Source: Candidatus Thorarchaeota archaeon (GTDB lineage: Archaea; Asgardarchaeota; Thorarchaeia; Thorarchaeales; Thorarchaeaceae). From it: a stretch of DNA of 15,137 nt. Below are positions 1 to 15,137 of this stretch, one piece after another. The notes beneath the pieces are model-generated. The model was not told where the DNA came from, made no database searches, and was given only the letters and a program-made list of their open reading frames with translations. Position 1 is the first letter of the stretch; each line of letters starts with the position of its first letter. The stretch is taken from the NCBI GenBank assembly GCA_016839605.1, contig JAEOTX010000117.1, positions 1-15,137 of the forward strand, written 5' to 3'. A program made the position numbers and the translations under genes.

Positions 1-411
1 GACCATCTAGAGAAGGGAAGATATAGTGCTCTAATAGTATCACCATTGACAAGAACAAAGATTGTACCGGACGTTATTCTTGTGTATGGAAATCCTGCTC
101 AGATGATGCGTCTCCTGCAAGGGGCCATGAACAAAGATGGAAAGAGATTGAAAGCTGAATTAGCAGGAATCATGGCCTCTTGTACTAGTGGAGTTCTTCG
201 CACTTTCAATACTCAAGACTATCAAATAGTAATACCTGGAAATGGAGACCGAGTATTTGCAGGTGCAAATGATGATGAAATGCTCTTTGCAATACCAGCC
301 GCAAAAGCTGAGGAAGTAGTGAATAGGATGAGACAACAGCGTTTCGCTAAATATCCAATTCCAATCTCGATGAAAATGCCGCCTCCTTTTCCAGGACTTG
401 AAGCGACTTGA
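1..411 (+). CDS. DUF169-family protein, C-terminal part (5' truncated by window edge)
   Basis: Frame 1 is open from base 1 (DHLEKGRYSALIVSPLTRTK...), so the TTG at 46 is probably internal. Motifs 'SPL...PDVILVYGNPAQMMRL', 'ASC', 'PGNGDRVFAG..DDEMLFAIP' match DUF169. Confidence 0.8.
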   Translation, partial: DHLEKGRYSALIVSPLTRTKIVPDVILVYGNPAQMMRLLQGAMNKDGKRLKAELAGIMASCTSGVLRTFNTQDYQIVIPGNGDRVFAGANDDEMLFAIPAAKAEEVVNRMRQQRFAKYPIPISMKMPPPFPGLEAT

Positions 412-440
412 CTAAATGGACCACCTTCCCCATGAAATTG

Positions 441-461
441 AAGCGGCAGGAGTTCATTGAC
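441..461 (+). repeat. 21-bp direct repeat, copy 1 (AAGCGGCAGGAGTTCATTGAC); right arm of an imperfect palindrome at 415-458
   Basis: Exact match to 2022-2042. The left arm AATGGACCACCTTCCCCAT (415-433) aligns with one gap to AATGAACTCCTGCCGCTT, the reverse complement of the right arm. Confidence 0.9.
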
Positions 462-570
462 AGACAAAGGACTGTGAATGAAGCAGTTGAAACTCCAAGC
501 ATCACAACAACATCCACTAATCCCTGTATAATCGAGCCATCTCTCAATCATACCCCAGCGCTTAAGAACG

Positions 571-1008
571 ATGAAGATGTCTGGTTCTATGTGTCGCAAA
601 ATGAGCGGAATGGGGAGAGAAAATCAATTTAGACTTAAGGATCGAAAACTTGAGAGCAGATTGCGTGATATGCCAGTATGGAGGTACATCCAGAAGAATC
701 AACCCATGCTTGAAGCTATTGATCATCTCTATGGCCTCCTCAACACAGTCTTACTAGAATATCCCACTGCACAATTGAAACTCCATTCTCGAAGTGAGCC
801 AGGACTGAGAGCCGTAGTCTTTGTCTTTCTCACCAATCTCTCCCAGCCTGAATCTATTGACCTATGGCGGAACCTCAATCGCTCGTTTGAAAACGCAGTG
901 CAGCACAAATGGCCCAAAAAGGCCCGGCAAATCTTGTGGCAACTCCAAGTTGAGGTTCGAAATCAGAATAATAGCGAATTAAGAATGAAGCGGGGGGATC
1001 TGTATTGA
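571..1008 (+). CDS. Hypothetical protein, putative antitoxin-like partner of the downstream HEPN-like protein
   Basis: 145-aa ORF; the true start may be a later ATG (601, 610 or 670). Its stop overlaps the next start (TTGA, 1005-1008). The helix-strand-'SEP'-strand-helix pattern resembles small alpha/beta proteins found beside HEPN genes. No GS..DxD nucleotidyltransferase motif is present. Confidence 0.6.
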   Translation: MKMSGSMCRKMSGMGRENQFRLKDRKLESRLRDMPVWRYIQKNQPMLEAIDHLYGLLNTVLLEYPTAQLKLHSRSEPGLRAVVFVFLTNLSQPESIDLWRNLNRSFENAVQHKWPKKARQILWQLQVEVRNQNNSELRMKRGDLY

Positions 1009-1460
1009 GCGGTATCCCATCTTCTTGGCGTGATTACCTCACGTTCATTGATACCCTCTTACAAGAATACAGGCATGGTGGTACTGTTCCAGACTATCCA
1101 GATGCAACAAAGAATGAGGATGTTGTTTCTAGACTGATAGTAGGCAGAGCATTCCTTTCAGTCTATTTGCACATCAAGCTGGATCTATTGAGAAGAAGTT
1201 GTACATTACCCAAAAGACCAGCTAATTCCTACCTCAAAGTTGCCAAAAAAGTGACTAGCGCACTTCAGGGATATAGCGGCAATAATCTGTCACAACGACT
1301 ACTGAGTCTAAAATCTGACTGGCTGGATGCTGACTACGAATACAATACAATTTACAATTTTCAAAATGCTCAAGATGCAATTGACAGTGCGCGAAGTATC
1401 ATTAATGATTTTGACCTTGAAGTTCAAAGAAAGCTGAATGATGGCCATGCTTTGTGCTAG
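1005..1460 (+). CDS. HEPN-domain-like protein (UPF0332/DUF86-like), divergent
   Basis: Pattern 'W.DYL...LL', 'RLIVGRAFLSVYLH' (cf. RxAISRAYYAxFH), 'LLSLKSDWLDADY' (cf. LxxLxxxRxxADY), 'AQDAIDSARSII'. TTG start follows a G-rich SD-like run (GGGGGGAT). Confidence 0.7.
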   Translation: MSGIPSSWRDYLTFIDTLLQEYRHGGTVPDYPDATKNEDVVSRLIVGRAFLSVYLHIKLDLLRRSCTLPKRPANSYLKVAKKVTSALQGYSGNNLSQRLLSLKSDWLDADYEYNTIYNFQNAQDAIDSARSIINDFDLEVQRKLNDGHALC

Positions 1461-1474
1461 CTACGACTATTCAT

Positions 1475-1514
1475 CCGGAATTTCGATTACTTCCAGAGAT
1501 ACGGAAATTCCAGG
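1475..1514. terminator. Imperfect hairpin between convergent genes (possible terminator or processing site)
   Basis: GGAATTTC (1477-1484) and GAAATTCC (1504-1511) are a perfect 8-bp inverted repeat, extendable with single-base bulges. Confidence 0.35.
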
Positions 1515-1573
1515 TCCCAATGATGCCCCTCTCCTAGCCAACTCCACCGGATTCTGTCATCCTATTCACACAG

Positions 1574-1933
1574 TTACATTGTAGGTGCAGTTTGAACTTT
1601 CTGTTCTTCGGGACTAGAGTGCTTTGGGGGATTTGAAATTACAAAATACACAGCTAGAAGAAAAACGGCAGATACGAGAACAAGCATGGATATCAGAATC
1701 ACAAATTCATTCAGAATCAAAAAATATCCCAAAAGAATCACGAGTAAAAGTACATAGAAGGCACAGATAACGAGTGTGAGCTTGATGAAGTAATTCCTTC
1801 TATGACGGTTCCAGTTTCGAAAGAATTCCGCATCGCGTGCTGTTCTGGGCATTGCTGCATCATGACTGATAAGGCTTGAAATCTCTTGAGGTTTTGCAAT
1901 ACTGAGGATTGAAAGATTTGAATTGGTCAGCAT
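1574..1933 (-). CDS. Small hypothetical membrane protein (2 TM helices)
   Basis: Basic stretch RNWNRHRRN followed by two hydrophobic segments (LTLVICAFYVLLLVILLGYFLIL; FVILISMLVLVSAVFLLAVYFVI). Alternative start ATG at 1852 (MPRTARD...). Confidence 0.6.
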   Translation of the reverse strand: MLTNSNLSILSIAKPQEISSLISHDAAMPRTARDAEFFRNWNRHRRNYFIKLTLVICAFYVLLLVILLGYFLILNEFVILISMLVLVSAVFLLAVYFVISNPPKHSSPEEQKVQTAPTM

Positions 1934-2021
1934 AAACTCGCGCTAGAGATTAGCGAGTTTGCTCTCTCAATCCCGAATCATGTACAAATATTTGCAAAAT
2001 CTTCAGTCTTGGAACTCCTCA

Positions 2022-2042
2022 AAGCGGCAGGAGTTCATTGAC
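2022..2042 (+). repeat. 21-bp direct repeat, copy 2; part of hairpin GAACTCCT-9nt-AGGAGTTC (2012-2036)
   Basis: Exact match to 441-461. Perfect 8-bp inverted repeat at 2012-2019 / 2029-2036. Confidence 0.9.
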
Positions 2043-2083
2043 GCACACAGATATACTGCATGAAAGGGCAATGCTATGCTGAC

Positions 2084-2824
2084 TCATTTCTGAATGATAT
2101 AGAAGACTGAGCCGTAGAATTCTGAGTCGTACTTCCTTACTATATCAATCTCTTCCTGATTCAAGTCAAGAAATGCATTGAACTCGCTGTTTGCTCCATG
2201 AATCTCTCGAAGTTCTCTGATCCTCTTCTCAAGAGGTAAGTAGCAATACTCCATAGTTTCTGAAGTTGGAATGAGGAGAGAGTCAACGAGTCGATAGTCT
2301 TGATTCTCAATCGCCTCCTCAATCTTCGCGTGTGTCGTCACACCAGGGTAGCTCCGCTCCCAGTAATTTCTAGCTTCATCAGGGACTATGCCTTTCAGCT
2401 TGACAACGGTTGAAATCACGATGTATCCCCTCGTCTTAAGGAAACGTTTCCATGATTTGAGAGCTCCCATGACGCCAATCCTGAAAATTACATTTTCAGC
2501 CCATATCACATCAAAGGCTCCATCTTCGAAGTCCATGGTGAACATGTCTTGCTTGAGAGTACGAATTCTATGTGAGAGATTCTGTGCTTCTGCTTTCGCC
2601 TCTAGCATGTCTAGATATGTTTGATTGATGTCTAGAGATACAATGCTGCCATCAGAGATCTTAGCGAGTTCGATTGAGCTCAAGCCGGTTGCACAACCGA
2701 CATCCAGAATACTCGGCTTTGGCGGGAGCTGAAGCATTTCGAATACTTTTCGGATAATCTTGGGCGAACCTGTACCAAGCTTGGGGATATCTTTGTATAG
2801 ATCAGTCAGAAATGCATCATCCAT
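2084..2824 (-). CDS. Class I SAM-dependent methyltransferase
   Basis: Motif I 'ILDVGCATG', acidic 'SLDIN', 'QDMFTMDFEDGAFDVIWAE', 'WKRFLKTRGYIVIS'. Confidence 0.9.
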   Translation of the reverse strand: MDDAFLTDLYKDIPKLGTGSPKIIRKVFEMLQLPPKPSILDVGCATGLSSIELAKISDGSIVSLDINQTYLDMLEAKAEAQNLSHRIRTLKQDMFTMDFEDGAFDVIWAENVIFRIGVMGALKSWKRFLKTRGYIVISTVVKLKGIVPDEARNYWERSYPGVTTHAKIEEAIENQDYRLVDSLLIPTSETMEYCYLPLEKRIRELREIHGANSEFNAFLDLNQEEIDIVRKYDSEFYGSVFYIIQK

Positions 2825-2903: not shown

Positions 2904-3590
2904 TCAACCGAACTGTTCGAAGATTTGCTGACGCGGAATAAGTTCTCTTGATATTTTACTCAATGTGTCGTCCGCTATTCTTCCATTGCTGACAATCTGA
3001 TGACCGGCATCTCGAAGAGATTCTATGACATCTTCAAAGGAAGCACCTCTCTCCTCAGCTACAGGAATGACCCATGCGCATGGTCGGAGAACGGCACCAA
3101 CGAATTCTCGCTTCATATTCAATGCCGCTGCCTTCATATGAACTACAAGTGGGTCGAAATTATCAAGCTCTGTAAAGCCGCTGACTGAAACAAGTGCAAT
3201 CTTGCCTGCCTTAGTTCCTTCTCTCAATGGATGCCGGCAATGATCATCCCTTATTTCCCACTTCCCCTCTAGAAGAGGAATTGACCTGTCCATGAATATC
3301 TTCATTGGTCCTGTCATGCCATCGACATAGACGGGTGTAGCATACACTACGAGGTCTGCGTCTGCGAGTTTCGGGAGCATATTCTTCATATCATCATCCT
3401 GGATGCACACTCCGGGAGTCTTCCACCAGCAGTCAAAGCAACCGCGACAAGGATTAATCTTCAGCTTTGGTATATTGACGAGCTCGACATTAGCTCCAGC
3501 ACTCTCCATGCCTTCAATGAATGGCTTGAGAATGCCTGCAGTTGCTCCTCGATCTCCTCTAGGGCTACCATTGATGACTAGGACTTTCAT
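2904..3590 (-). CDS. Flavodoxin-family / iron-sulfur flavoprotein (NADPH-dependent FMN reductase fold)
   Basis: 'KVLVINGSPR...T', Fe-S motif C-x2-C-x2-C-x7-C (CRGCFDCWWKTPGVC), 'DDM', 'ADLVVYATPVY', 'MKIFMDR'. Confidence 0.9.
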   Translation of the reverse strand: MKVLVINGSPRGDRGATAGILKPFIEGMESAGANVELVNIPKLKINPCRGCFDCWWKTPGVCIQDDDMKNMLPKLADADLVVYATPVYVDGMTGPMKIFMDRSIPLLEGKWEIRDDHCRHPLREGTKAGKIALVSVSGFTELDNFDPLVVHMKAAALNMKREFVGAVLRPCAWVIPVAEERGASFEDVIESLRDAGHQIVSNGRIADDTLSKISRELIPRQQIFEQFG

Positions 3591-3780
3591 AAGAGATTCG
3601 GAAATTTGGGGTCCTATTGAACATGTCGGCAGGCATCCTGCTCTGATTAATAAGTAAACGAAGCTATAGTTGGGATATTGCGGGAGATTGAGTATGCATT
3701 TGAACGATGACTCCTAATCAATGACTAACTTATGCAAACCTGGACTTCATTCTCGCTTCAAAGGGAGATTGTTGATTTCG

Positions 3781-5607
3781 ATGAAAGTCAGAGTCAGTTT
3801 GGCTGTTGTGTTGTTGGTGTCTTCACTTTTTTTTGGGGCACTCACACCAACTACAGGTTCGGCTGTTTCAATAATCAAAGGAAACTCATCATTCACTGCA
3901 ACAATACCGCATGATCCAATAGTTATCATAGGAGATGCCAACTTCAGCGACACAGCGCTAGTAGAAGGTTGGTCGGGTGATGGTTCATCAGGTTTGCCAT
4001 ATATCATTGAGAACCTCGACATAGATCTAGGGTTTACTCCAACTGCTGCTATTAGCATCACAGGCACGCAGGCGCACTTCGTTATTCGACAATGTTACCT
4101 TACGGGTCCATTAGCTACACCTTCCTATGGGGTACACCTCGAAAACGTTGCTAATGGTATAATTGATAATACAGACTGTAGTGGTTTCTCGACTGGAATC
4201 AACATCACCGGATGCGATAGCATAACCGTTTCAGACAATAATTGCAGTGACAACCCCAATGGCATCTATATTATATCCTCAAACTCTAGCACAGTCATCA
4301 ATAACATTTGCAGTAACACAATGTTCATTGGGATTCGAATTGAAAGCTCAAATTCAAGCATTGTGAGTGGCAATATATGCAATGATGGCGATATCAATGG
4401 ACTCTACATGAATAATTGCAACTCAACCATTGCGAATGATAATGTGTGCAACAATAACAACTATGGCCTTTTCCTACATACATGCAATTTTAGTACTGTA
4501 AACCGTAACACCTGCAATGAGAACGCCTTATCTGGCATCTACCTATTCCGGTGCCATTCCAGTTCTGCGGCTGACAACACATGCAACTACAACAGAGAAG
4601 GCATGTATATCCAAGAGATGGACCATAACAATGTGACTCGGAACTCGTGCACACTCAATACACTTCGGGGTATTGTACTCCAAGAATGTGATTTCAATAA
4701 CTTGACCTTCAATATCATTGCAAACACCACGACAGATTTCGGACTCCTTCTTCCTGGGCAGTCAGACAACAATGATCTCACTTGGAATGTCCTCGTTCAT
4801 AATGTGTTTAACTGCATAGACGATGGAATAGGCAATACATTCGACAATAACTATTGGTCCGATTACGGTGGTGTTGACAATGATGAAGATGGAATTGGTG
4901 ATACAACATACCTCTTCGATACCACGAATTCCGATTCTAATCCGTTGATGTATTATCCATTTCCGCCGGAATTCGCGCAGACTCCCGTTGACCAGGTCAT
5001 TGAGTTTGGAACTGTCTTCTCGTATACACTCGAGTTTACAGTCACAGCTACAACTGCACCCTATCAGCTGTCTGTCGATGACGTAGCGAACTTCGCAGTT
5101 GATACTGGTGACACAATTATCAGTAGAACAACCCCGGAAGTGGGGATCTACCCTGTACAGACAGTCGCAACAAACATCTATGGATTTGCAACCGTAAGTG
5201 CCTTCACTCTAACTGTTGCAGACACGACACCCCCAACCGTTACTGATGCAGAAGACATCGAATTTCTTGAAGGCGAGGGTGGTGATTATGAGCTACAGTG
5301 GACACTCTCGGACCTCAGCCCTCTCAACTTTGTGCTCCTCAGAAACGGAACTGAGGTCATTTCAAGTAGTGAGCCTACGACTGCTGTATATTACTCAACA
5401 GCCGTTGAAGACCTTCCGCCAGGCGTGTACAACTACACTATCGTGGCAACAGACATCTGGGACAACGTAGCATTTGACACAGCCCTTGTCACAATTCTTC
5501 CCGTCCCGGTCCTCGATGCACTTCTTCCATGGCTGATTGTCGGTGCGGCTGCTGTTGTAGTTGTTATCGTGTCATTTGCTGTCTTCAGGAAACGAAAGGC
5601 CTCGTAA
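3781..5607 (+). CDS. Secreted, C-terminally membrane-anchored NosD/CASH right-handed parallel beta-helix protein with Ig-like C-terminal domains
   Basis: Signal-peptide-like N-terminus from ATG 3781 (MKVRVSLAVVLLVSSLFFGAL; ORF track starts at 3721). 'HDPIVIIGD', 'GDGSSGLPYIIEN', ~22-aa repeats 'NxCxxNxxGIxL', 'NYWSDY.G.D.DEDGIGDT.Y', 'DTTPPTV', 'GVYNYTIVATD..DN', and a C-terminal TM helix plus RKRK tail. Confidence 0.88.
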   Translation: MKVRVSLAVVLLVSSLFFGALTPTTGSAVSIIKGNSSFTATIPHDPIVIIGDANFSDTALVEGWSGDGSSGLPYIIENLDIDLGFTPTAAISITGTQAHFVIRQCYLTGPLATPSYGVHLENVANGIIDNTDCSGFSTGINITGCDSITVSDNNCSDNPNGIYIISSNSSTVINNICSNTMFIGIRIESSNSSIVSGNICNDGDINGLYMNNCNSTIANDNVCNNNNYGLFLHTCNFSTVNRNTCNENALSGIYLFRCHSSSAADNTCNYNREGMYIQEMDHNNVTRNSCTLNTLRGIVLQECDFNNLTFNIIANTTTDFGLLLPGQSDNNDLTWNVLVHNVFNCIDDGIGNTFDNNYWSDYGGVDNDEDGIGDTTYLFDTTNSDSNPLMYYPFPPEFAQTPVDQVIEFGTVFSYTLEFTVTATTAPYQLSVDDVANFAVDTGDTIISRTTPEVGIYPVQTVATNIYGFATVSAFTLTVADTTPPTVTDAEDIEFLEGEGGDYELQWTLSDLSPLNFVLLRNGTEVISSSEPTTAVYYSTAVEDLPPGVYNYTIVATDIWDNVAFDTALVTILPVPVLDALLPWLIVGAAAVVVVIVSFAVFRKRKAS

Positions 5608-5611
5608 TGGA

Positions 5612-6322
5612 TTAGCTAGATGCTTTCTTGGCTCTCTCATAGTTCCTGTTGTACCTCTCTCTGAGGTCTGCCTCAGCAATCAGAGGTTGACTGATAGATT
5701 CGAGGACATCAGTGTTCATCTTGCCTTGTTTGATTAGTTGCTTTCCTGCCATCTTTATTGCGTCAACAACAGCAAGAGCTTTCTCCTCGAATTCATTCAT
5801 CAGGAATGCATGGGGACGGAGTAATGCACCTGCAAACTCTACGCCGCCATTCTCAGCGATCTCTTTTGCTATGTGAAGCACTGTGTCTAGGTTGCCTTTC
5901 TCCCACCAGCCTCCTGTAGCTACAAGTACAATCTTTGAGATGTTGACATCATCATGGAATTTTGCTCGGGTTCGGCCATTTCGAAACTCCAAAATTGGCT
6001 CACAAATAGGCATTAATCGGTTTAGGAGATTCTGAAACTCACCAGGCAATGGAAGGTAGACTGGTGTAGCAAGGACCAGGATATCTGCCTCTTTCATTTT
6101 TGGAAACAGGATCTGCATATCGTCTGTGTGAATGCATTCGCCAACTTTATCAAACCAGCATTGGAAATCTCCCATGCACGGTCGGATTTTGAGCTTCTTA
6201 GCATACACCACTTCAACTGTGGCTCCTTCCTTTTCCATGCTCTGTAAGAATGGAGTCAACACCATAGCCGTGTTTCCTTTCTCCATACGTGCACTGCCAT
6301 TAATTGCGAGTACTTTCGTCAT
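5612..6322 (-). CDS. Flavodoxin-family / iron-sulfur flavoprotein, paralogue of 2904..3590
   Basis: 'KVLAINGSAR..GNT', C-x2-D-x2-C-x7-C (CMGDFQCWFDKVGEC), 'DDM', 'ADILVLATPVY', 'FAGALLRPH'. Confidence 0.9.
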   Translation of the reverse strand: MTKVLAINGSARMEKGNTAMVLTPFLQSMEKEGATVEVVYAKKLKIRPCMGDFQCWFDKVGECIHTDDMQILFPKMKEADILVLATPVYLPLPGEFQNLLNRLMPICEPILEFRNGRTRAKFHDDVNISKIVLVATGGWWEKGNLDTVLHIAKEIAENGGVEFAGALLRPHAFLMNEFEEKALAVVDAIKMAGKQLIKQGKMNTDVLESISQPLIAEADLRERYNRNYERAKKASS

Positions 6323-6500: not shown

Positions 6501-7121
6501 ATGACGAATATATTTTCAACCAAGGTTCTGAACACATTTGGAGCTCAAGTACCTGAACTCAAGAGCACATTAGCGGCAGTTGAGATGAAGCTGGAGCCAA
6601 CACTGACACCTCCCTTCGAGATGCTTGTAAGGTCAATAGTATACCAACAGCTCGCCTACAAAGCTGCCAAGACCATTCACGATCGAATGCTTGCACTCGT
6701 AGGAAAGCTGACTCCTTCATCTGTGCTGAAAAAGAGCCAAGAGGAGCTTCGAATGGTTGGACTCTCACGTCAGAAGGCATCTTACCTTCACAATGTTGCT
6801 GAGTCCTTCAAGAGAGGAGGGCCGCTCTGGAAATATAGGAAGGTCGAGTCGTTAGAGAGCTTGTCGTCTGAAGAGATTACTACAATCTTCACAGCCATAA
6901 AGGGTGTTGGAGAATGGACTGTGCAGATGTATCTGATTTTTTCATTGGGTCGCCTAGATGTTCTATCTTCAGGAGACCTCGGCGTTCGTAAGGGAGTGCA
7001 AAAGATGTATGACCTTGACGAAATGCCTACACCAAAGCAGGTCAAATCAATTGCTGAGAAATGGCATCCTTTGGAGACCGTGGGAACCTACCTGGCTTGG
7101 CGTGTCCTTGAAAGTGAGTGA
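6501..7121 (+). CDS. alkA: DNA-3-methyladenine glycosylase II (AlkA/HhH-GPD family)
   Basis: 'FEMLVRSIVYQQL...AA.TI..R', 'LRMVGLSRQKASYL', HhH motif 'IKGVGEWTVQMYLIFSLGRLDV...GDLGVRKG', 'AEKWHP....TYLAWR'. GGGAG SD upstream. Confidence 0.9.
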   Translation: MTNIFSTKVLNTFGAQVPELKSTLAAVEMKLEPTLTPPFEMLVRSIVYQQLAYKAAKTIHDRMLALVGKLTPSSVLKKSQEELRMVGLSRQKASYLHNVAESFKRGGPLWKYRKVESLESLSSEEITTIFTAIKGVGEWTVQMYLIFSLGRLDVLSSGDLGVRKGVQKMYDLDEMPTPKQVKSIAEKWHPLETVGTYLAWRVLESE

Positions 7122-9696: not shown

Positions 9697-10719
9697 TCAT
9701 GACGTTCCTGAAATTCCGTTGTATGATTCTTCAACCTCAAGAAGCATGGTTTCTTTCTTCGTTTCAGATACAAAAGCCGATTTGATTCCATTTTGTGTAA
9801 TCGAGTAGAGGTCCGTGAGCGAGAATCCAAGCTTATCATGCAGGTGTGTGTACTCAAATGAAATATTGGTGTCAAAGAATGCAGGGTCGTCGCTATTCAC
9901 GGTAACTAGCAGGCCTCGATCGTAGAATTCTCTGATTGGATGCTCTGATATTGAAGCAACCACTCCCGTTCTAACATTGCTCATTGGACATGACTCGATC
10001 GCTATTCCTCTTTCCTTGATATGCTCCATTAATTTTGGGTCATTGATGGCTGATGTACCGTGCCCAATACGTTCTACTTCTAGAAACCTTATCACATCCC
10101 AAATTGACTCGGGTCCTTCTGCTTCGCCTGCATGTGCAACAAGATGCAGTCCCAGCTTTCTGGCCTCTTTATACACAGGACCAAATGGTTTTGCAGGAAA
10201 TTCATGTTCGCTTCCTCCAATGTCCACGGAAACAATACTATCAAGTCTCTCTCGAATCCAGTCTAAAACCTCCATTGCAGATTCGGCCCCGTAATTTCTC
10301 ACTAGATCAATTCTCACATCCGCGTCAATCCCAGTTTTCCGATGAGCGCGACGTATACCTCTATCTATTGCGTCAACCATTGCACAAAATTCCAGCCCTC
10401 TTCTCATATGATCTGGAGCTGAGAAACTAATCTCAGCATAGCGGACATTGTTGGCAGAAAGGTCTTCAAGCATCTCAAAGGCCAAGCGCTCGAACTGCCT
10501 TTCATTGGTGATATAACTCACCACTTCTGAATAGACTGAGATAAAGTGGCCAAAGTCTTGGAATTGAAACAGCTGAGCCAAATCTGCTTCTGATTTGTAC
10601 GAGGTCTCGAACCCACCTTCATCAATATAATGAAGCAAAGTCCGCGGTCTTATGGTGCCAAGGATATGAATGTGGAGCTCCACCTTCGGGAGCGCTATGA
10701 TGGCTTCGTGAGTGTTCAT
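9697..10719 (-). CDS. add: Adenosine/adenine deaminase family protein
   Basis: 'LPKVELHIH..G', 'NVRYAEI', 'DIGGSE', 'AHAGE..GPESI', 'ERIGHG', 'ESCPMSN', 'VTVNSDDP'. ATG at 10719 (TTG at 10722 is the alternative). Confidence 0.92.
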   Translation of the reverse strand: MNTHEAIIALPKVELHIHILGTIRPRTLLHYIDEGGFETSYKSEADLAQLFQFQDFGHFISVYSEVVSYITNERQFERLAFEMLEDLSANNVRYAEISFSAPDHMRRGLEFCAMVDAIDRGIRRAHRKTGIDADVRIDLVRNYGAESAMEVLDWIRERLDSIVSVDIGGSEHEFPAKPFGPVYKEARKLGLHLVAHAGEAEGPESIWDVIRFLEVERIGHGTSAINDPKLMEHIKERGIAIESCPMSNVRTGVVASISEHPIREFYDRGLLVTVNSDDPAFFDTNISFEYTHLHDKLGFSLTDLYSITQNGIKSAFVSETKKETMLLEVEESYNGISGTS

Positions 10720-13751: not shown

Positions 13752-15137
13752 TCATTTTGACTTCAGAATTACGTCGCTCACAAACGATTCGAAATCCTCA
13801 ACGCACTCTGCTATTGCCATCCCTTCCTCCAGACAGGAATGTTCAGTATATGCCTGCAGAGCCTTCCCCAATTCAAGTATGAGAGAGGGGCTCTCTTTCT
13901 GATTGAAATAGATTTCACGGACAGACTGAATCCCAGTGAGTGCAGCTTCTCTAGGTGTCATTTCTGAAACCGCTGTCGCTACTGGCTTCTTCTTACTGCA
14001 GACTAGAATTACATTCTGGTTGATGCCGTGTGCTCTGACGCCGCTGGGTGTTTCACCATGTGTTGGATAAGCGGCTTCGACATAGAATCCTGCATTCATG
14101 AGAATTCGTAGGATAGCCGTCCATGCTTTGAGCCGTTTATGCTGATAGACAAAGACAAGCTTTGCCTCATCCTTTAGCACCCTATGGATCTCTTCATAGA
14201 CACGGGTCATCGACTCTACAAAGAAATCAGCATCTTTGCCAGTCTTGTTGTGTACAAGAATCTCCTCTTCGCTGTTGCTGGATTTCCTGCTGAATGGAAA
14301 TGGGTATGACTCCCGTAGTTGTTCACGCAGCCATACATAGAAGAAATCCGAGAGTTCAGAGTACATGATGTTATCATAATAGGGAGGATCAGTGATTACT
14401 GCATCAACGGTCTTGTCAGGAATGAAAGACAAGTCCTCTGACGATTGGCATTTCAGTAGCGTGTTTTCTCTCTGTTTAAGGTCCTTGAAGTCATCAACAA
14501 ACTCGGCTCTGATCTTGCCGCCAACGTTCACTCTTTCTCTGATTCTGATTTGTTTGCCTTCTTCAATTCCTCCATCTGTGAATCGAATTTCGTAAGGTAA
14601 TCGCTGATATTTGAGGGCTCTAATGCCTTTCGCGACATATCTGCTAAAGGAGCCTCTTCCCACCTTAGTTCCCCATACATTGTTCTCAACTGGAGTAGTC
14701 GGTGGGGAAAAGTAGTGTCCGCCAAAGAGAGGCTCAAGCTTTGATGCATGAGTATTATAGATGCAGAACATGTTGTTGGCATTGAGAGAGTCTGAGAATG
14801 TGAGGAGGAGAAATTCTCTAACAGCCTTCTCTCGCACTTTCAGAATCTGCTCCAAAATCATGGAGAGAGCGAGCAACTGACGTGAATTGAAGAAATCACA
14901 AAATCTCTTGTATACAACACATCGTGGTCGCATCGTGGCCATTTTGGTCCAAGGAACCTCATCATCCGGAATCAGTGTGCCTGTTAGATTGTCCTTTCTC
15001 AGATTATACTCTCTTTCTGCATCAGCGACTCGTTTGAGGTCGGTTTTGCTCGGGGTCTTGTATTCTCTCCCGCATTCCTTACAGTAAATTTCAAGCGCGT
15101 AGGGCCTTTCAACAGGCGGTGTATTTCTAGCTAGCCA
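13752..15137 (-). CDS. Adenine-specific DNA methyltransferase, DUF1156/COG1743-like (Zn-ribbon containing), 5' truncated by window edge
   Basis: The frame stays open from 14942 to the window end (WLARNTPPVERPYALEIYCKECGREYKTP...). Motifs 'DFFNSRQLLAL', 'PVENNVWG', 'VITDPPYYDNIMYSELSDFFYVWLR', 'RVLK....VFVYQH....AW'. Confidence 0.88.
   Translation of the reverse strand, partial: WLARNTPPVERPYALEIYCKECGREYKTPSKTDLKRVADAEREYNLRKDNLTGTLIPDDEVPWTKMATMRPRCVVYKRFCDFFNSRQLLALSMILEQILKVREKAVREFLLLTFSDSLNANNMFCIYNTHASKLEPLFGGHYFSPPTTPVENNVWGTKVGRGSFSRYVAKGIRALKYQRLPYEIRFTDGGIEEGKQIRIRERVNVGGKIRAEFVDDFKDLKQRENTLLKCQSSEDLSFIPDKTVDAVITDPPYYDNIMYSELSDFFYVWLREQLRESYPFPFSRKSSNSEEEILVHNKTGKDADFFVESMTRVYEEIHRVLKDEAKLVFVYQHKRLKAWTAILRILMNAGFYVEAAYPTHGETPSGVRAHGINQNVILVCSKKKPVATAVSEMTPREAALTGIQSVREIYFNQKESPSLILELGKALQAYTEHSCLEEGMAIAECVEDFESFVSDVILKSK

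Follow-up and report, generated by a model that had tools for sequence, protein, structure and literature searches.

Direct repeats in a Thorarchaeota contig are displaced 3' ends of nrdD within an array of accessory genes

The DNA studied here (the window) is a whole contig of 15,137 nucleotides (nt), JAEOTX010000117.1, from the Candidatus Thorarchaeota archaeon assembly GCA_016839605.1, and the subject is a pair of direct repeats near its left end. The 21-nt sequence AAGCGGCAGGAGTTCATTGAC occurs exactly at 441-461 and 2022-2042, both on the plus strand, as a sequence-only reading of the same DNA had stated. Each 21-mer proved to be the best-preserved part, codons K-R-Q-E-F-I-D, of a displaced 3' end of nrdD, the gene for anaerobic ribonucleotide reductase. 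The interval between nrdD and a gene for an HhH-GPD DNA glycosylase is a gene-collecting site in this Thorarchaeota-type family, and the 21-mers stand within it. Probably, although with real room for doubt, the array to which these nrdD tail relics belong grew by tail replacement, with no integrase visible.

The repeat itself is real. Across the 3.08-Mb, 259-contig assembly (genome G000, in which the window is contig C42), the copies at 441-461 and 2022-2042 are the sole ones with two or fewer mismatches, which marks a real repeat and not a dispersed element; the abundant, dispersed 21-mer that the sequence-only reading had envisaged as a possible outcome is not what the genome holds. Similarity between the window repeats reaches 29 nt at 90%. 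A chance resemblance, or a chimeric metagenome join at a shared k-mer, might be suspected in a bin of 259 contigs, given that 21 nt is a common assembler k-mer and that a contig break falls inside the DUF169 gene just upstream. We find this scarcely credible, since the two-match pair was reproduced in 0 of 200 dinucleotide-preserving shuffles, the homology spans 76 nt with a codon pattern, and the same arrays appear in closed genomes, on long contigs, and in the independent assemblies L052 to L056.

The origin of the repeat became visible at three mismatches, where the sole additional match in the genome lies on contig C163 at 1585-1605 and differs by synonymous changes only. All three copies translate in frame as KRQEFID. 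The motif on C163 sits 7 codons ahead of the stop of a long open reading frame (ORF) ending in ...ISRITGYLQNLQSWNHSKRQEFIDRHRYTL, and this ORF encodes NrdD (PF13597, E value of 1.4e-123, matched to the last profile position). The 21-mer is the core of a repeat of about 76 nt copied from the last 24 to 25 nrdD codons. Indeed, 15 tail copies from 7 genomes align over 76 to 78 nt, and a nucleotide model, R1, was built from that alignment; model positions given below refer to R1. The functional nrdD of a congener, G012, contains the exact 21-mer, so the identity of the window copies was inherited from one tail allele and is not a recombination footprint.

Two descriptions of the repeats change in consequence. 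They had been called intergenic; no called ORF includes them, yet they are remnants of nrdD coding sequence that still read KRQEFID in frame. They had also been called hairpin-associated, and here the folding results disagree. An 8-bp stem (GAACTCCT/AGGAGTTC) is private to the second copy, and the folds are no better than those of shuffles. As single-stranded DNA, the window copies gave z values of -0.4 to -1.4 against shuffles, and the functional nrdD tail folded worse than its shuffles, with a z of +1.7. No stem was shared among six tail copies, of which the two from the window were folded on both strands (z of -1.4 to +1.7).

The last 127 nt of C163 are the first 127 nt of the window, an overlap that is unique in the assembly. 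The joined order is nrdD, TPR gene, type-B tail, DUF169, relic r', gene pair and membrane gene, relic R, methyltransferase and further genes, and HhH-GPD. Genome G000 has four tail copies, counting the functional nrdD end, and all lie on the nrdD strand. The features are as follows, with bare coordinates referring to the window.

L019:1550-1625: functional tail of nrdD, which lies on contig C163, adjoining the window.
Between nrdD and the type-B tail, on the C163 side: TPR gene, 499 amino acids (aa).
L019:3266-3341, nrdD strand: type-B tail copy.
1-411, plus strand: 3' part of a DUF169 gene (PF02596, E value of 1.4e-30), cargo that stands in other contexts in relatives; its start is on C163 (L019:3475-3937).
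432-472, plus strand: relic r', an nrdD tail truncated on both sides (model positions of about 24 to 66), which holds 441-461 and reads KLKRQEFIDRQR (nhmmer E value of 2e-5; R1 E value of 2.7e-7).
571-1008, plus strand: 145-aa gene, cargo, the first member of a pair of overlapping genes, without a Pfam or PADLOC family.
1005-1460, plus strand: 151-aa gene, cargo, second of the pair, no Pfam match even at E values up to 5.
1574-1933, minus strand: membrane protein gene, 119 aa, with weak membrane-protein Pfam matches only; an indel among close haplotypes.
1987-2062, plus strand: relic R, a full-length displaced nrdD tail, which holds 2022-2042, reads YLQNLQSWNSSKRQEFIDAHRYTA, and has its stop at 2060-2062 (R1 E value of 4.3e-17).
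2084-2824, minus strand: S-adenosylmethionine-dependent methyltransferase gene, cargo (Methyltransf_25/11/31, E value of about 1e-14).
2904-6322: rest of the variable region, by Pfam a flavin mononucleotide (FMN) reductase gene (minus), a NosD/beta-helix gene (plus), and a second FMN reductase gene (minus).
6501-7121, plus strand: HhH-GPD DNA glycosylase gene (PF00730, E value of 3e-16), which forms the array's conserved right border.

One block fills the 1.6 kb from the first 21-mer to the second; it is made of the cut tail r', the two genes of the pair, and the membrane gene, with the next, older tail R behind it. By tblastn, relic R is 91% identical to NrdD residues 690-712. No tail copy was detectable in 2904-6322, a region that is partly syntenic at 77 to 79% with contigs L053 to L056 and with genome G002, and no relic stands upstream of the HhH-GPD gene in G000. 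The methyltransferase homolog in genome G009 is followed by another nrdD tail. The proposal that the overlapping pair is HEPN-like, or a toxin-antitoxin system, drew no backing from Pfam (no match at E values up to 5 for the 151-aa protein) or from PADLOC. An ORF of 74 codons at 408-632 on the plus strand (66 aa from its ATG), which starts within relic r' and runs into the beginning of the 571-1008 gene, is probably not a gene but a side effect of the relic sequence. At the other end of the window, the last 127 nt (15011-15137) are identical, in reverse complement, to the end of contig C219, which probably continues the chromosome.

Tail arrays are widespread in the family. Tails matching R1 were found in 46 of the 61 family genomes, many of which carry 2 to 8 clustered copies on the same strand; G068 has 7 copies on one contig, and G060, G020, G079, and G081 have 4 each. 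In at least 10 genomes nrdD lies directly upstream of the row of tails. The left flank is conserved housekeeping, with genes for an elongation factor 2 (EF-2)-like GTPase, a hexapeptide transferase, an AsnC helix-turn-helix regulator, the thymidylate synthase ThyA, a thioredoxin-like protein, and then nrdD. On the right, the HhH-GPD gene comes first and then a gene for a Cys/Met pyridoxal phosphate (PLP) enzyme, and HhH-GPD orthologs close the arrays of G011, G020, G051, and G076 as well as that of contig L053. The empty state is preserved in G042 as nrdD, 177 nt, and HhH-GPD. The last relic is only 81 nt (G051) and 46 nt (G076) ahead of HhH-GPD, which indicates that the oldest tail kept its original neighbor. 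Outside the family the nucleotide model gave single hits only, with a sensitivity too low to claim that such arrays are absent there.

The cargo between the tails differs from genome to genome and includes NosD/beta-helix proteins, hemerythrin, PEMT, a luciferase-like oxidoreductase, an ABC transporter, MoxR-VWA, restriction-modification genes, TPR proteins, and DUF169. Cassettes measure 0.5 to 4.7 kb and hold one to three or more genes, often just one, and cargo occurs on both strands. Members of one cargo family are found in different slots of different genomes. Since the cargo families shift slots and the real borders are nrdD (on C163) and HhH-GPD (6501-7121), the DUF169 and methyltransferase genes, which had been taken for conserved anchors of a smaller insertion, are themselves cargo of a larger array. 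Likewise, the empty site expected on that basis, DUF169 and methyltransferase joined by a single repeat, was not found in relatives, where the empty state is nrdD next to HhH-GPD.

Some of the array contents recur. The commonest cargo consists of genes for NosD/right-handed beta-helix surface proteins, with 15 members in 23 loci and lengths of 600 to 1700 aa; one of them is at 3721-5607 in the window. Genes for a 170- to 185-aa protein that has a zinc ribbon at each terminus and two membrane helices were seen repeatedly in the first or an early slot behind nrdD, in two genera, at the following loci.

L021:10360-10869: zinc-ribbon membrane protein gene.
L028:2280-2819, minus strand: zinc-ribbon membrane protein gene.
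L032:7542-8084, minus strand: zinc-ribbon membrane protein gene.
L054:123-680: zinc-ribbon membrane protein gene.

Tail copies also occur away from nrdD. In the closed genome G056, two lie 2.1 Mb from nrdD (L023; G056:C1, about 400.2-401.9 kb), one overlapping the end of a sulfatase ORF. They may be a piece of array that either moved there or was built there.

Turnover within the array could be followed in close haplotypes. The 151-aa gene has no homolog in 60 family genomes, and its four homologs (77 to 88% identity) are labelled Thorarchaeota or metagenome proteins. Contigs L052 to L056 match the window at about 87 to 92% nucleotide identity over the pair region. Carriers of the interior genes also hold tail copies, and not, as the sequence-only reading had allowed for, the genes without repeats. 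The arrangements are as follows.

Window: DUF169, r', pair, membrane gene, R, methyltransferase, FMN reductase, and so on.
L053 to L055: tail, DUF169, r', pair, R, NosD830, tail, FMN reductase, NosD, 162-aa gene, HhH-GPD.
L056: longer r', pair, methyltransferase, FMN reductase, with window positions 1553-2063 missing.
L052: pair, membrane gene, R, 454-aa gene, tail piece, NosD782, tail.

The membrane gene is present in L052 and missing from L053 to L055 and from L056. A NosD gene and a tail occupy the methyltransferase position of the window in L055, and the right edge of the L056 indel falls exactly after the stop codon of tail R. Haplotype break points are at tail edges or inside tails. All five haplotypes share one junction between r' and the pair (CACAGG|ACTGTG, where the tail is truncated at model position 66), although the DNA beyond the pair takes four different forms among them.

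These results bear on the earlier view of the region as a discrete 1.6-kb element, inserted at a palindromic site by an HUH/Y1 transposase or a tyrosine recombinase and stabilized by a toxin-antitoxin pair. Exact 21-nt direct repeats do flank non-housekeeping genes, and the absence of interior-gene homologs from 60 family genomes is what such an element would show. We nevertheless consider it very improbable. The repeats lack a conserved hairpin and are relics of nrdD coding sequence, the genes flanking them are themselves cargo, and the interior is not one unit, because the membrane gene comes and goes apart from the pair. The HEPN or toxin-antitoxin signature is missing, and neither PF00589 (tyrosine recombinase) nor PF01797 (Y1/HUH transposase) was detectable in the assembly, which is 80% complete. 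The core idea of that view survives in altered form. The repeats, which have the same orientation and no recombinase gene nearby, as had been noted, do delimit accessory cargo that is missing or recombined in relatives, and this fits an origin by insertion; what had been seen as palindromic recombination sites are displaced nrdD 3' ends.

The tails themselves carry information about how they arose. Two types, SKRQEFI (A) and AKKQEFL (B), both serve as functional ends within one genus, and both are present as relics in G000. Variation among relics is concentrated at third codon positions, as in functional tails, and stops occur in about 8 of 49 relics. A recombination core maintained at the nucleotide level was rejected, as relic conservation equals that of functional tails with no extra signal. 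Judged by sequence, the relics appear to be once-functional nrdD ends. The functional tail outscores relics in 23 of 25 comparisons, and the nearer relic outscores the farther one in 14 of 19 pairs (P = 0.06, with pairs that are not independent). The left edges of the relics fall at model positions 1 to 10, directly after the radical-glycine codon, (G)Y|LQ, in 39 of 61 cases and at 28 to 34 in 11 of 61, and the right edge reaches the stop codon in 48 of 61. The two preferred left edges hint at site-specific cutting. Comparison of tail with body divergence in nrdD, using one genome per species, found third positions saturated in both parts. Apparent relic extensions of 38 to 67 codons proved to be alignment spill-over. 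One true long relic, comprising the last 96 or so nrdD codons (L043:5305-5592), was seen in G044 only, upstream of a restriction enzyme homolog with an in-frame TGA.

On this basis we favor the following account of array growth by tail replacement. An incoming block of DNA would bring its own copy of the last 24 to 25 nrdD codons, beginning after the radical-glycine codon, and would recombine with the resident nrdD so that the new tail becomes the functional end. The former tail would be displaced downstream, stay there as a non-functional relic, and decay slowly. Repeated rounds, together with recombination between tail copies, would yield a row of cassettes separated by tails. The trigger may be a crossover with imported DNA or a cut by a nuclease. 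What the repeats are, the array with its borders, the empty state, and the turnover in relatives are shown by the data; we infer the direction of growth, and likewise that the nrdD body and the tail copies supply the homology for recombination. For TPR cassettes, the upstream tails are 0.90 to 0.95 identical between G015 and G002, and the downstream tails are 0.68 identical (background, 0.68 ± 0.07). Tails of the luciferase-like cassettes are 0.73 to 0.79 identical upstream versus 0.60 to 0.66 downstream, and other families are mixed. The TPR values, like the r'-pair junction shared by five haplotypes, favor a tail that moves together with the cargo following it.

Several observations weigh against this account. 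The tail upstream of DUF169 is type B in G000 and type A in L054, with the downstream r' shared, so a unit of a tail and its following cargo is not universal. The L056 indel (1553-2063) comprises cargo plus the downstream tail, as a unit of cargo and downstream site would give. The genes in the first slot of about 15 mapped arrays are ordinary or defensive: TPR, zinc-ribbon membrane protein, ABC transporter, NERD, and a restriction-modification pair. Between the functional tail and the first relic, no cis homing endonuclease was found in those arrays, and this analysis identified no enzyme or trigger for insertion.

A different possibility is an integron-like system, in which a recombinase of an unrecognized family, acting in trans, would recognize the tail core (AAG NNN CAG GAG TT) and move circular cassettes, with the nrdD end as attI and the relics as attC. 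The small cassettes, often of one gene, the same-strand arrays with sharp repeat edges, and the recurrence of cargo families in different slots across genomes would all fit, as would the L056 indel, which ends exactly at the tail stop codon, and the two relics 2.1 Mb from nrdD in G056. We regard this as rather unlikely. The mapped left flank has no recombinase gene beside nrdD, PF00589 was not found in four genomes with tail copies (G000, G060, G056, and G020), and no integrase was seen in about 15 mapped arrays. No attC-like fold is present, and cargo orientation is mixed. The relics show no nucleotide conservation that codons do not account for, and they decay with distance from nrdD, which argues against maintained sites, and the junctions within tails vary, with r' cut at model position 66 and 5' cuts at 28 to 34.

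A homing endonuclease acting in cis, of the WHO or mobile ORF (mORF) type discussed below, would be a special case of tail replacement: a selfish gene would have cut the resident tail while carrying a resistant one and later been lost, with the cargo hitchhiking. The architecture matches that of the WHO clusters behind yeast FBA1 and of fungal mitochondrial mORFs, relics have two preferred start points, and the tail types are recoded. A classical homing element does also attack nrdD in this family, as evidenced by a LAGLIDADG intein (Intein_splicing, E value of 4e-26; LAGLIDADG_3, E value of 6e-14) within nrdD products of 1245 to 1248 aa in three genomes, listed here.

L018:2472-6209, minus strand, in G012: intein-bearing nrdD.
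G061:C5: intein-bearing nrdD.
G017:C20: intein-bearing nrdD.

Such a drive is nonetheless distinctly unlikely to be the cause, considering that about 15 arrays lack a homing-type endonuclease where it would be expected, that the mapped arrays have no free-standing LAGLIDADG genes, and that the individual candidates failed. A NERD plus zinc-ribbon gene behind nrdD in G064 was set aside as a driver, as NERD genes are rare in the family and only this one is at nrdD. The TPR cassette gene was also dismissed, its N-terminal 280 residues resembling further TPR and helical repeat. The third candidate was a 302-aa ORF abutting nrdD in G063, from a family without a Pfam model, which resembled a PD-(D/E)xK nuclease and, by Atlas features, EcoRII-C. 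A structure model built on 3 sequences was of unusable quality (pLDDT of 51.5), and an AlphaFold model from 56 homologs (pLDDT of 89.5) matched PspGI, Ecl18kI, and EcoRII-C with a Foldseek probability of 1.0 and a TM score of about 0.6. Its homologs pair convergently with N6/N4 DNA methylases and occur near nrdD tails in G044 and G070 as well. With a predicted type II restriction fold and a methylase partner, the ORF is best read as restriction-modification cargo and was rejected as a homing enzyme.

The family to which this ORF led us comprises proteins of about 235 aa, with no Pfam model, in Thorarchaeota, Thermoplasmatales, and Nitrososphaerales, and with the predicted PspGI/Ecl18kI/EcoRII-C fold. 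Together with the N6/N4 methylase, it looks in the structure models like an unannotated type II restriction-modification family. Its homologs are P0002 to P0060, and the loci are as follows.

L036:1588-2406: gene of the restriction family.
L038:706-1422: gene of the restriction family.
L039:1519-2229: gene of the restriction family.

Directly upstream of the restriction-modification cassette, nrdD of G063 shifts frame about 70 codons before its end (L025; G063:C7, about 9800-10030). A sequencing error, a pseudogene, or a scar of recombination could each account for the frame change.

If growth by tail replacement is true, a gene-collecting locus in the archaeal lineage closest to eukaryotes uses the last 25 codons of a housekeeping gene as its landing pad, and the nrdD locus stores surface proteins, enzymes, and defense systems and shuffles them among species. 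Asgard archaea would then also have a concrete and testable way to gain genes horizontally without an integrase. A broader proposal is that Asgard archaea have a general, integrase-free mode of gene capture, in which the ends of conserved genes, here nrdD, serve as portable recombination sites, each import renewing the end and stacking the old one. This would be integron-like in outcome, with another enzyme or with host recombination alone, and we offer it tentatively, as a possibility that we doubt somewhat more than we believe. There is a practical side as well. Relic tails are easily taken for intergenic repeats, att sites, or small ORFs in annotation, and the arrays break metagenome assemblies; here the contig break falls inside the array, within DUF169.

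Full-text literature searches found no paper describing such gene-tail arrays in archaea, and several known systems offer partial parallels. Tandem integrative elements and their cis-mobilizable remnants insert at the 3' ends of tRNA or other genes, where the element restores the 3' end of its target and leaves the displaced end as the distal repeat, and successive integrations build arrays. The nrdD arrays differ from tyrosine-integrase elements in having no integrase gene in about 15 arrays, and several of the genomes have no detectable PF00589. They differ from the peel-and-paste elements of the IS200/IS605 (HUH/Y1) group in that PF01797 was not detected in G000 (80% complete) and that there is no conserved hairpin. 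Integrons, which include CALINs (clusters of attC sites lacking integron-integrases) and integrons reported in Archaea (Ghaly et al. 2022, PMC9668308), are similar in their small same-strand cassettes between members of a repeat family and in cargo shared and reshuffled among genomes. In contrast, the nrdD arrays lack IntI and imperfect palindromes of the attC type, their genes do not share one orientation, and their repeats are copies of the coding end of a housekeeping gene.

Insertion with long target duplication in bacteria (Nobusato et al. 2000; Furuta et al. 2010, PMC2853133) places blocks, often of restriction-modification genes, between direct repeats of more than 30 bp. Those repeats often span the stop site of a gene, no mobility gene is present, and the mechanism was unknown (PMC2853133). 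The 76-nt repeats, the lack of mobility genes, the empty site in G042, and the restriction-modification cassette in G063 are all reminiscent of this. The bacterial cases, however, are of variable length, at scattered loci, and of one event each, whereas nrdD is one fixed site that is reused with a fixed left edge. In the nrdD arrays the duplication length does not vary in this manner, with one left edge common to 39 of 61 relics and one right edge to 48 of 61.

The closest designs are otherwise known only from a few yeasts and from fungal mitochondria, where they carry solely a selfish endonuclease. Fungal mitochondrial mORFs with a C-terminal duplication have been described in atp6 of Allomyces and in atp6, atp9, cox2, and nad3 of Glomus (Beaudet et al. 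2013, PMC3630166). As in the nrdD arrays, a foreign C terminus replaces the native one, the native one stays downstream, and the differences are largely synonymous. The mORFs are single insertions with a LAGLIDADG or GIY-YIG gene, unlike the multicassette, cargo-bearing arrays at nrdD. WHO elements at FBA1, the aldolase gene, in the yeasts Torulaspora and Lachancea produce an intact gene followed by tandem displaced 3' fragments (Coughlan et al. 2020, PMC7282813). The newest unit in a WHO cluster adjoins the gene and consists of a new 3' end with the DNA that follows it, and the fragments may leave the frame and can serve as homology for recombination (PMC7282813). The genes between the FBA1 fragments are endonuclease genes or pseudogenes, whereas those in the nrdD arrays are ordinary accessory and defense genes, with no endonuclease found; the duplicated piece is about 140 codons at FBA1 versus 24 to 25 at nrdD, and the host of the nrdD arrays is an archaeon. 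With both the WHO elements and the mORFs, the nrdD arrays share an intact gene that has displaced copies of its own 3' end behind it, as well as recoded, largely synonymous replacement tails, of which types A and B are both functional within one genus.

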